Positions 2,842-5,800 of a DNA stretch of 64,000 nt are shown in pieces (the stretch's first letter is position 1; each line of letters opens with the position of its first letter). The stretch covers positions 14,751-78,750 of the forward strand of contig NW_021831879.1 in the NCBI RefSeq assembly GCF_006345805.1, written 5' to 3'. The DNA is from Octopus sinensis (Eukaryota). Under the pieces are notes generated by a model, which saw only the letters and a program-made list of their open reading frames with translations, made no database searches and was not told the origin of the DNA. The translations under genes and the position numbers were made by a program.

Positions 2842-5800
2842 CTAGAACACAAAAGTAATATGAATATAACAATATTAATTTTTGTATTTAGGAATGGTCA
2901 TTTTGCCAGTTTAGCCAATAAAAACACACGCACTATATATTTGGTGTTACTTTGCTTCAGTGTTATTTATTTTTTACATTAATCTTAATCTTATTTCGAC
3001 CAGAGTTCTTTCGTCACACTCCTGTGACTGTATCAGTGGTCCTTTGCTTTCTTCTTTCTTATTTGTGTGTCTCTCCTTACTAATCGTCAGCCATTTTGTA
3101 TTGGCTAAACTGGCAAAATGACCATTCCGAAATACAACAATATCTGTTTCAACACACGATTTCACATAAAAAATCTTGCACAAGAAATATATAAACGTAA
3201 CAATATTAATTATCTATATAAATATGTGCATCGATATACAAAACATTGGTGTTGATGCTGTGTCACGTTTTGTCCCTTAATTTATATGTTCAATAAAAAA
3301 GTGATCGATAAAACTGAAATTTATGTTAGAGCCAACACAGTCAGTTAAATGCAAGAAAATATGTGACTGAACCTGTGATAGAGATATAAAAAATATAAAA
3401 CTAAACTGTCGTTCAGTTCTATATTTAAGAGATGAGGAATTATGTACATTATTTAAATTATTTACATTTGACGGATATTTGTCCTCATCTTGTTTGTTGT
3501 TAACACAACGTTTCGGTCCATATGTATATGGTGTAGTGGCTAAGCGTGCAGGCTACTAACCCCAAGATTCCGAGATCGATTCCAGGCACTGACCCGAATA
3601 ATAATAATAATAATACTAACAACAACAACAACAATAAGAAGAACAACAACATCGAAAAATACCTTAGGTTTGAAATTTCCCAAGACACCTGATGAAGGCT
3701 GGAGGGCATTTTCAGATCATTAAAATGGGATGTCAAGTGGACAAAACTAAGCATTTTTGACACCGTTTGCTTTTTGTACATAATCGGGGTGTTATGCTCG
3801 TCAAGGTTGCTCCTAAGATTTATGCTGTGTATGGAGAAGAAGCAATGCCTCAAATACCGCCTGCCGTTGATTTTCGCGCTTCAAAAATGGGAATTTTTAC
3901 CTCAAGGACGGATCACATACCGGTCGACCAACTGAAGAACGATTGAATAGACTTCCTCCGGTCAAACGACCAGAGAATTGGCCGAGCGGATGGACTGTGA
4001 TAAAAAAAAAAAATGGTAAACCACCTTCACTCAATGGGTAACGAAAGAACGAAAATTATCGAATGGCCTCAGGTGACAGAGAACAACGTGACAACACTTC
4101 ACAATTCGATCTTCGACTTAAAATGTCGAACACATGCTACTTGAATCCAAAGAAACGTGTGCAGTTTTCTGCATTGTCATCCATTATCTTGTATTCAAGA
4201 TCCTCGGCATGACATCCTGCCGATAACTAAATCCACGCCCTGCTACCGACGCTTCGATTTATTGTCGTTAAGGTTTTGTTTGTCTCTTACCCTTCGACCT
4301 GTCTGGCTTGGTAAGATGTGCTTGAAGATTTCTCTCCCTCCAGCATAGCTCACCGAGTCAATGGAGCACACAAGCACTTCACAGCGACAAGGTACTTGTT
4401 GTATTGGCCGTTGTCTACACAGTATCCGCCCTTTGACGGGACTTATTTTTCGTCCCGCAAAGACAATCACCCTCCTCACCATGCGACAAGTTGTACTGAC
4501 TTACATGTTACCAGTAGCGCTCAAGAGCGATCTGACAACATAAACAATTAAATACAATGAAAAAAATATGGAAAAAGCGTCATGTCCATCCCTGGATATT
4601 ACTGTTGCGCGTCCTTGATCCAAAGGGATGATTGTCCGGTTTCTACGGCGTATAAGTAACCGAGATCACATCTCCCCTGAACGGGATGCAAGTCCATCAC
4701 AAGTTTATTCATTTACAGCCGAATAGACTGAAATGACCTGAAATGAAATATTTTGCTGAAGATTACAACGCACAGCCCGGTCCGGGAATCGAAACTAAGA
4801 TCTTTCGGTCGTGAATGCAACACCCTAACCACTATGCCATACACTTTCACGTTTGGTATATGGTCGCGCTTAAAACACAGAGAATATTCAAGCTAACAAT
4901 GAAATTTTCTAAATGGTTGTACTATACTTACCTCCCCCAAGCTATCTACAATCTCTTCGTATAATCTTTGTTGAGATTTAGAATTAATTGCCATTAAATA
5001 CGTGAAAAAACTAAGAGCAGAAGCTGTAGTTTCATAACCAGATAAGAAAAGTACCACACATTGGGCCAGAATTTCATCGTCGGTAATTCCTATGGAAAAT
5101 AAAAAATCAGAAATATTATAGTTCTATATTTAAGAAATGCGGAATTATGTACATTATTTACATTATTTACATTTGATAGATATTTGTCCTCATCTTGTTT
5201 GTTGTTAACACAACGTTTCGGCTGATATACCCTCCAGCCTTCATCAGGTGTCTTGGTTAAGAACACGGGCTACTAACCCCAAGATTCCAAGTTCGATTCC
5301 TGGCAATGACCTGAATAACAACAACAACAACAACAACAACAACAACAACAACAACAACAATAATAATAATAATAATAATAACAATAATAACAACAATAAC
5401 AACAACATCGAAAATACCCCAGGAATGAGAACCCAGGTTCGAAATTTCCCCAAGACACCTGATGAAGGCTGGAAGGTATATAAGCCGAAATGTGTTAACG
5501 ACAAATAATAAGGACAAATATCAAATGTAAATAAAATAAATAATGCAGAAATATTATGATATATATTATATATATAATAATTATTATTTGAGGGAATAAA
5601 ATCCAAACTTACAAGAAAAAAAATTCAATTTAGAATACTAAATCAAATTTCACACAATATAATATATATATCATTTTGAATTGATAAAAGGTGGTTCTTT
5701 CTAATTTTTATATATATATATATATATATATATATATATATATAGATATATATATATATATATATATATATATATTAATAGTTATCGCGAAGCTAATATG

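Follow-up and report, generated by a model that had tools for sequence, protein, structure and literature searches.

A 64,000 nt stretch of the Octopus sinensis genome (RefSeq assembly GCF_006345805.1, contig NW_021831879.1, positions 14,751 to 78,750, forward strand; hereafter the window) carries two related insertions, copy 1 (3415–3709) and copy 2 (5120–5545). Both are best explained as short, decayed pseudo-long terminal repeats (pLTRs) of a Penelope-like element (PLE) that holds a transfer RNA (tRNA)-derived cassette with A and B boxes, probably reverse-transcribed from an RNA polymerase III (Pol III) transcript begun about 6 nt upstream of the cassette. The initial annotation, made from the letters of the window, had read the same repeats as a free-standing, self-processing short interspersed nuclear element (SINE) driven by Pol III and borrowing PLE machinery. 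It is very likely, instead, that the repeat unit is the pLTR of a protein-coding retrotransposon of the Penelope/Poseidon type.

The two copies do share one layout, as first described: after an inverted arm come a tRNA-like head, an (AAT)/(AAC) tract, a linker and lastly a forward arm with a hammerhead ribozyme motif. Their parts are as follows.

Copy 1, 3415..3516, minus strand: inverted partial pLTR arm, 95% identity to arm positions 36–137
Copy 1, 3518..3531, no strand: collapsed palindromic head-to-head join
Copy 1, 3525..3598, plus strand: tRNA-derived head; A box at 3529–3539, B box at 3574–3583 with one change
Copy 1, 3597..3650, plus strand: (AAT)n/(AAC)n spacer
Copy 1, 3651..3709, plus strand: linker, then the 5′ half only of the hammerhead (from the sequence and its alignment to the arm)
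Copy 2, 5108..5119, plus strand: left target-site duplication, 12 bp, identical to 5546–5557
Copy 2, 5120..5256, minus strand: inverted pLTR arm with tail, containing a complete minimal type I hammerhead
Copy 2, 5257..5316, plus strand: 3′ part of the tRNA-derived head; B box at 5291–5300 intact, A box absent
Copy 2, 5317..5407, plus strand: (AAC)n/(AAT)n spacer
Copy 2, 5408..5449, plus strand: linker with the PLE start codon (ATG at 5425–5427)
Copy 2, 5450..5545, plus strand: pLTR arm without the tail and with a damaged hammerhead; 85% identical to arm positions 1–105
Copy 2, 5546..5557, plus strand: right target-site duplication, 12 bp, a perfect match to 5108–5119

The join of copy 1 and the spacers of both copies were read from the sequence. 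The inverted arm of copy 1 contains the 3′ half of the hammerhead, N-terminal codons of the element's open reading frame (ORF) and a 3′ 'tail'; its linker has lost the ATG through a short deletion, and its plus-strand hammerhead breaks off at 3709, ahead of GAAA. In copy 2 one frame is open throughout the inverted arm and matches the N-terminus of the ORF, the A box is missing because the inverted arm joins into the head, and in the plus-strand hammerhead stem II carries a mismatch, with helix III and the cleavage site gone. Of the two copies' arms, only the inverted arm of copy 2 has a complete hammerhead (5252–5207, minus strand). Each motif of the string by which the unit was first described does occur, but the string is a composite, and neither copy has all of its motifs. 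The target-site duplication of copy 2 and the palindromic join of copy 1 were absent from that description. Over the whole window, neither a tRNA nor a hammerhead was reported by ARAGORN or by Rfam at its gathering score, and the Rfam tRNA model matched the head of copy 2 with an E value of about 10.

The identification as a pLTR comes from the coding element, which lies elsewhere in the same genome. All loci recovered by a protein search of the genome (30/30) belong to one Penelope family, in which the order across the pLTR is ORF stop, an untranslated region (UTR) of ~40 nt, tRNA head, microsatellite, ATG, hammerhead and ORF start. The head lies right behind the ORF end in 28 of 30 loci chosen on coding DNA, a set that includes four near-identical duplicates and whose ranking favours copies reaching the UTR; the coding element itself thus has the whole unit, head included, and this tells against a SINE that borrows the PLE machinery. 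Codons for the reverse transcriptase (RT) thumb and the endonuclease stand directly 5′ of the head in locus L019, the full junction from ORF end through head, linker and arm to ORF start is present in L112, L120, L126 and L408, and in the near-full-length L093 the arm continues into the ORF N-terminus; the pLTRs of the last five loci are partial tandems of ORF end, UTR and ORF start. Coverage of the ORF end, UTR and head is unbroken in the reads and contigs of other sequencing runs as well. The linker ATG (5425 in the window) opens at least 120 stop-free codons in the natural copies L105, L107 and L110, and a relative, P0003 (56% identical), has the matching peptide at its own N-terminus, so that the hammerhead arm and the supposed second B box are coding sequence. 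The latter, at 5436–5444 in copy 2, had been taken for a promoter element and lies within the first codons of the ORF. An autonomous PLE with the same hammerhead arm, for which a search had been advised, therefore exists, the arm being the start of its ORF.

The protein could be followed in the decayed copy L075, which has a 551-aa stop-free frame with 1,703 relatives. It is 42% identical over 548 aa, endonuclease region included, to P0064, which has RVT_1 and GIY-YIG domains, and by this similarity the ORF product is predicted to be an RT with a C-terminal GIY-YIG endonuclease. Its place in the Penelope/Poseidon clade is presumed from the domain order and from motifs. A point on the other side is that a Pfam search with the L075 protein and with fragments gave no direct match; a PDB sequence search with the element protein reached E ≥ 0.14 at best, and no relatives were found in viral contigs.

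The repeat unit is a dispersed family and not a chance arrangement. Its size was estimated from exact 24-mer matches over the whole 2.72-Gb genome, with reversed 24-mers as controls. There were 3,818 matches to the linker/hammerhead, 2,639 to the head start, 798 to the UTR just 5′ of the head and 87 to the arm-to-ORF junction (control 0 in each of these four cases), and the palindromic head-to-head join occurs in ~385 exact copies (767 strand matches). Scaled by the exact-match rates among copies examined (linker 17/97, head 9/53, UTR 33/59), rough totals are ~20,000 for the linker, ~15,000 for the head and no fewer than 1,400 for UTRs linked to an ORF, the UTR rate being probably an overestimate. 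Long copies differ by ~6% from the commonest letter per column, none of the family copies examined has a full-length intact ORF, and the family looks to be inactive now. Family sequences were also found in sequencing runs labelled as five organisms (A to E), in some of them at a small share.

How the short copies were made can be read from their ends, which were surveyed at 91 of the first 100 listed linker-pattern places, in chromosome order. The 3′ ends fall into two zones ~35 nt apart, arm positions 88–116 (48 copies) and 132–146 (31 copies), with 4 between, 4 shorter, 2 at 148–149 and 2 unplaced; none of the 91 reaches into the ORF. This bimodal pattern, with its 35-nt tail, has been traced by Frangieh et al. 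(PMC11167929) to two internal RT start sites. Since the ends lie at two PLE-type sites within the ORF start, the proposal that Penelope and not LINE (long interspersed nuclear element) machinery is at work holds good, and a LINE-derived or A-rich 3′ tail is not the end type of this family.

The 5′ ends are given relative to the first base of the head, negative numbers lying upstream. In the same 91 copies, the class that stops between −7 and +9 or folds back in that span numbers 34 (one head enters it twice), and 14 copies continue into the UTR or ORF, so that 34 of the 48 head-reaching copies stop at the 5′ edge of the head. Of 30 heads in a second sample, chosen on their first 24 letters, 25 either fold back or reach no more than 7 nt upstream, and the other 5 run on. 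A set of 78 short heads comprises 19 that fold back, 9 with their end at −7 (a deleted long copy is one of the nine), 47 with an end between 0 and −5 and 3 that reach about −25; not one of the 78 has its end at −8 to −14. Nine copies of the ORF start have an upstream head; 5 of them begin at the head and 4 continue into the end of a previous ORF. In both L410 and L411 the template-jump junction lies at −6. In L409–L413 and L418, N-terminal sequence of the ORF is fused to the start of the head, and these chimeras suggest end-to-end template jumps by the RT.

Copies are mostly single or head-to-head, tandem dimers being only occasional (L041, L138/L139), and head-to-tail hammerhead arrays are not the arrangement of this family. 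There are 58 head-to-head pairs among 297 distinct copies, and their partners have 94 variants in common against 49 ± 7.5 expected by chance; set against this, the partners differ in 15 of the 20 pairs that carry one 3-nt deletion. For this reason a fold-back route and a two-template route of joining may both operate. The last ORF codons and UTR, ~55 nt 5′ of the head (L227, L064), look like a decayed inverted head, and there is a weak sequence indication that the UTR derives from a head-to-head pair inserted behind the ORF (P 0.02–0.03 by shuffles; 6–8% of other windows score equally once the proximal palindrome is left out).

Pol III initiates a few bases 5′ of the first base of a tRNA and terminates where at least four T follow one another. 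The sharp 5′ edge at the head, together with the lack of ends at −8 to −14, places the RNA start at about −6, a Pol III-like position, and on present evidence we favour, with fair confidence, Pol III as the maker of the RNA that templated the short copies. The coding sequence bears on the same question. No TTTT is fixed on the sense strand anywhere in the element (28–55 copies per column), its ORF being 2.5 kb. Across 815 codon columns TTTT is seen 0 times, where 2.9 would be expected from the codon usage of the family itself (P about 0.05) and 6.0 from that of its relatives (P about 0.001). None of 33 near-intact relatives from metagenome contigs has a TTTT-free ORF, and the 21 of them with similar T content have a mean of 10 TTTT per 2.6 kb (range 1.1–17.6).

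Several observations weigh against a Pol III origin. In the survey of 91, 30 copies are headless and 13 end within the head. On the family's own usage the TTTT deficit reaches just the P value of about 0.05 given above, other homopolymers are also below expectation (AAAA 26 vs 37, GGGG 0 vs 1.1), a synonymous-shuffle test of the single decayed copy L075 was not significant (2 vs 2.7), and two AATAAA are fixed in the ORF. The metagenome relatives L324 and L342 have one TTTT each in ~2 kb of matched sequence. Of five copies, three have the junction hairpin as the top-ranking of 186 windows, one has it second and one eleventh, so that structure alone could set the 5′ edge, and a TATA-like word ~30 nt upstream is equally compatible with Pol II. 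In published descriptions, palindromes at pLTR 5′ ends and head-to-head joins are already known for Penelope, in passages that mention no tRNA head (PMC3846280), and the Drosophila Penelope has a LINE-like internal promoter (PMC2377424).

L324 and L342 have similar hammerheads, and an A and B box pair was not found behind either ORF. Three raw RNA runs of the related organism B show equal depth for both mate directions, with ~800–3,300 on the pLTR and less than 40 on the 5′ half of the ORF; no pile of read starts was seen at the head in these runs, and their depth mirrors copy number, which is neutral on Pol III. Internal 3′ ends at weak TTT terminators (6/25) were dropped as a line of evidence; early clustering is seen in the ends in any case, and one locus supplied two of them.

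In the leading alternative, possible but somewhat unlikely, the unit is the same pLTR and the tRNA segment is a captured passenger, the 5′ edge being set by a Pol II start or by the junction hairpin through stalling, fold-back or template switching. It draws on the 5′-end palindromes and TATA/Inr-like (initiator-like) words described in rotifer Penelope pLTRs (PMC3846280), on the LINE-like internal promoter reported for Drosophila Penelope (PMC2377424) and on the place of the junction hairpin among the most stable windows. The ORF must also be translated, and messages are normally capped Pol II RNAs, but the positions of the ends fit this explanation poorly. An RNA hairpin should halt the RT at the 3′ base of the hairpin, about +10, whereas of 61 head-bearing copies just 3 stop at +7 to +9, against 22 with ends at −7 to +5. 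A hairpin in the complementary DNA (cDNA) fares no better: it would not yield ends as early as 0 to −5, which 47 of the 78 short heads have, and the 2-nt bulge of the UTR at the fold-back is in none of the 78. A Pol II start exactly at the position of a pre-tRNA leader would be a coincidence, and the TTTT-free ORF is left unexplained.

A bolder form of the Pol III explanation would have the whole 2.9-kb coding RNA made by Pol III from the captured tRNA promoter, with an ORF purged of TTTT, capless translation and the ~20,000 SINE-like hammerhead copies spun off from the element's own 5′ end; we regard this, as read from the sequence, as unlikely.

The head is derived from a tRNA, as first proposed: the family heads are colinear with tRNAs of the genome (mean score 52 vs 25 for shuffles), the best match being tRNA-Arg(TCT) among 6 amino-acid types sampled. 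An A box is present in 135 of 179 heads, a B box in 120 and both in 87. The head did not give a cloverleaf on folding. Among relatives with enough flank, 0 of 43 have an A and B box pair behind the ORF, and relaxed ARAGORN searches of relatives returned noise alone. An independent Pol III SINE with its own source genes, borrowing the PLE protein through the common hammerhead arm, would account for the short copies being several-fold commoner than the ORF-linked ones and for their SINE-like start at the tRNA edge, and the possible inverted head in the UTR (P 0.02–0.08) hints at a former insertion of a short headed element behind the ORF. It is nonetheless improbable. Head, spacer and linker are also in the coding element, arm and linker are the ORF's own start, and a comparison of 118 short with 61 ORF-linked heads, linkers and arms found no column separating the two after 258 tests (lowest P 0.004). 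The short copies do not form a non-autonomous SINE lineage distinct from a partner element.

Chance nesting of a LINE-partnered tRNA SINE beside a PLE fragment is very improbable, even though other tRNA SINEs exist in the genome (that at window 4700–4845 has a similar A box) and 7 of 30 pattern-picked heads have neither linker nor arm within 1.4 kb: both follow the other 23, the 7 are truncated within the head or broken off in the microsatellite and show no other SINE body, and the junction is identical across loci. The linkage of head and arm, which the initial annotation had left to a genome-wide check, is thus borne out.

Under the favoured explanation, a single promoter in the upstream pLTR would give an RNA starting at about −6. 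The RT/GIY-YIG protein would nick AT-rich DNA and, by analogy with the work on Poseidon PAc, reverse transcription would start at internal sites just within the ORF. From the first internal site, a copy of ~300 nt ending at the RNA 5′ end would be made, and this would be the mini-element; starts at the downstream pLTR would give 5′-truncated copies of the ORF. Inverted partners may arise when two cDNAs, or one folding back, join at the palindrome of the RNA 5′ end. More tentatively, the hammerhead may cut some of the transcripts as a dimer.

The hammerhead is a minimal type I motif with a palindromic helix III; its core and stems I and II were read and folded, and in the copy 2 inverted arm (5252–5207, minus strand) the predicted cut falls after 5212. 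The exact core is kept in 52 of 282 copies, and a hammerhead motif with other stem sequences lies behind the ORF in 20 of 43 relatives. Rfam scans of whole loci were dominated by microsatellite matches, and further Rfam scans gave no hammerhead. Copies that start within 1 nt of the predicted cut number 6, against ~1 expected from 18 others spread over positions 60–111, which may hint at cleavage in vivo; on the other hand, there are just 6 such copies, one locus contributes two of them, and the site has a palindrome next to it. Among the joints listed for the three organism-B RNA runs there was no back-joint at the cut site of the kind a circular RNA would leave. The cleavage site carries an in-frame 3-nt deletion in 42 of 297 copies, and 55 of 297 have a T/A variant at the variable core position; these may mark subfamilies or recurrent slippage.

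Several features of the family are established for Penelope: inverted partners, junction palindromes, the 35-nt tail and the minimal hammerhead. Poseidon PAc of Anolis (PMC11167929) and Adineta Penelope (PMC3846280), as described, have a single ORF for RT and GIY-YIG, a pLTR that includes the ORF start, a hammerhead overlapping this start, two end sites with a 30–40 nt tail, inverted partial pLTRs, palindromic joins and a target-site duplication. Not mentioned for these in the text consulted are the tRNA A/B-box cassette and microsatellite of the octopus pLTR, a template 5′ edge at the cassette and an ORF without TTTT. The PLE hammerheads described by Cervera and de la Peña 2014 (PMC4209133) are likewise of type I, with an extra base before stem II and a palindromic helix III for dimer cleavage; they are mostly single dispersed copies, sometimes opposite-strand pairs 100–700 bp apart, and the predicted octopus motif shows no difference from them as given in that account.

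Short repeats that have a Pol III-type promoter followed by a hammerhead are described in schistosomes (Sm-alpha and Sj-alpha, PMC6765202), so that the pairing of promoter and hammerhead, for which no cephalopod precedent had been recognised initially, was already known outside the octopus group. Those are described as non-coding tandem repeats, whereas the octopus unit is the terminal repeat of a coding element and mostly head-to-head. Non-LTR retrozymes (bioRxiv 10.64898/2026.07.22.740005) are also short hammerhead units from PLE pLTRs, but are defined by head-to-tail tandem arrays; the main text of that preprint has 0 mentions of tRNA, Pol III, octopus or mollusc. Cassandra, Helenus and Ajax ('TRIMp3', PMC10886601) similarly hold a Pol III cassette derived from a small RNA within a terminal repeat. 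As described there, they are non-autonomous elements with true LTRs, a primer-binding site and a polypurine tract, mobilised by Copia/Gypsy, and their autonomous partners are argued to require Pol II, whereas the octopus cassette sits in the coding element itself and its repeats flank a PLE ORF and end in PLE fashion.

The octopus heads resemble, by description, those of known octopus SINEs in being derived from tRNA, and no SINE body was seen with them. These SINEs, OK, OR1 and OR2, were reportedly introduced by Ohshima and Okada in 1994, and OR1 and OR2 are said to be of Arg origin. OR2 has been named as a CORE-SINE (PMC4758252). Penelope families have been annotated in an octopus, in an account with 0 mentions of hammerhead in its accessible text (PMC13282606). 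In the literature searched, as far as accessible, no published description was found of a tRNA-derived A/B-box cassette fixed in a pLTR, although repeat libraries, Repbase, Dfam or SINEBase may list the family under a Penelope or SINE name, nor of a Pol III-transcribed coding retrotransposon.

Other parts of the window carry further elements. The different tRNA SINE at about 4700–4845 (minus strand) matches the family head at 15 of 16 letters in its A-box region, has related copies at other examined loci and is a possible relative of the head's donor. At 5738–6460, a unit of ~140–190 nt occurs in direct and inverted copies between (TA)n tracts and resembles a second PLE-style inverted insertion. 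Decayed fragments at 37308–37870 and 20631–21127 (both minus) have 29–44% identity to the PLE protein P0003 and probably belong to older PLE copies or to different ones. At 33842–34528 and 25769–26410 (both minus) there are open frames, 229 and 214 aa long, that are putatively similar in their motifs to Neptune-type PLE proteins, and a 199-aa frame at 41900–42496 (minus) is presumably like the C-terminal part of an RTE-type LINE.

The two insertions are thus mostly of a known kind, Penelope pLTR copies, and the feature for which no published account was found is the tRNA promoter cassette at the 5′ edge of the template, combined with an ORF free of terminators. Should the cassette be a mere passenger, this is an ordinary Penelope family with an odd UTR. 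The transcription of PLEs, and the reason why solo and inverted pLTRs are abundant in genomes, are poorly understood. If Pol III does make the template, a coding retroelement would have a SINE-type promoter, contrary to the argument put forward for the autonomous partners of TRIMp3 (PMC10886601), and there would be a direct path from a pLTR to a Pol III and hammerhead unit like Sm-alpha. Were Pol III to transcribe the full coding RNA, the family would supply the link so far missing between Penelope elements, SINEs and retrozymes. Repeat annotation would mislabel copies such as these as tRNA SINEs.

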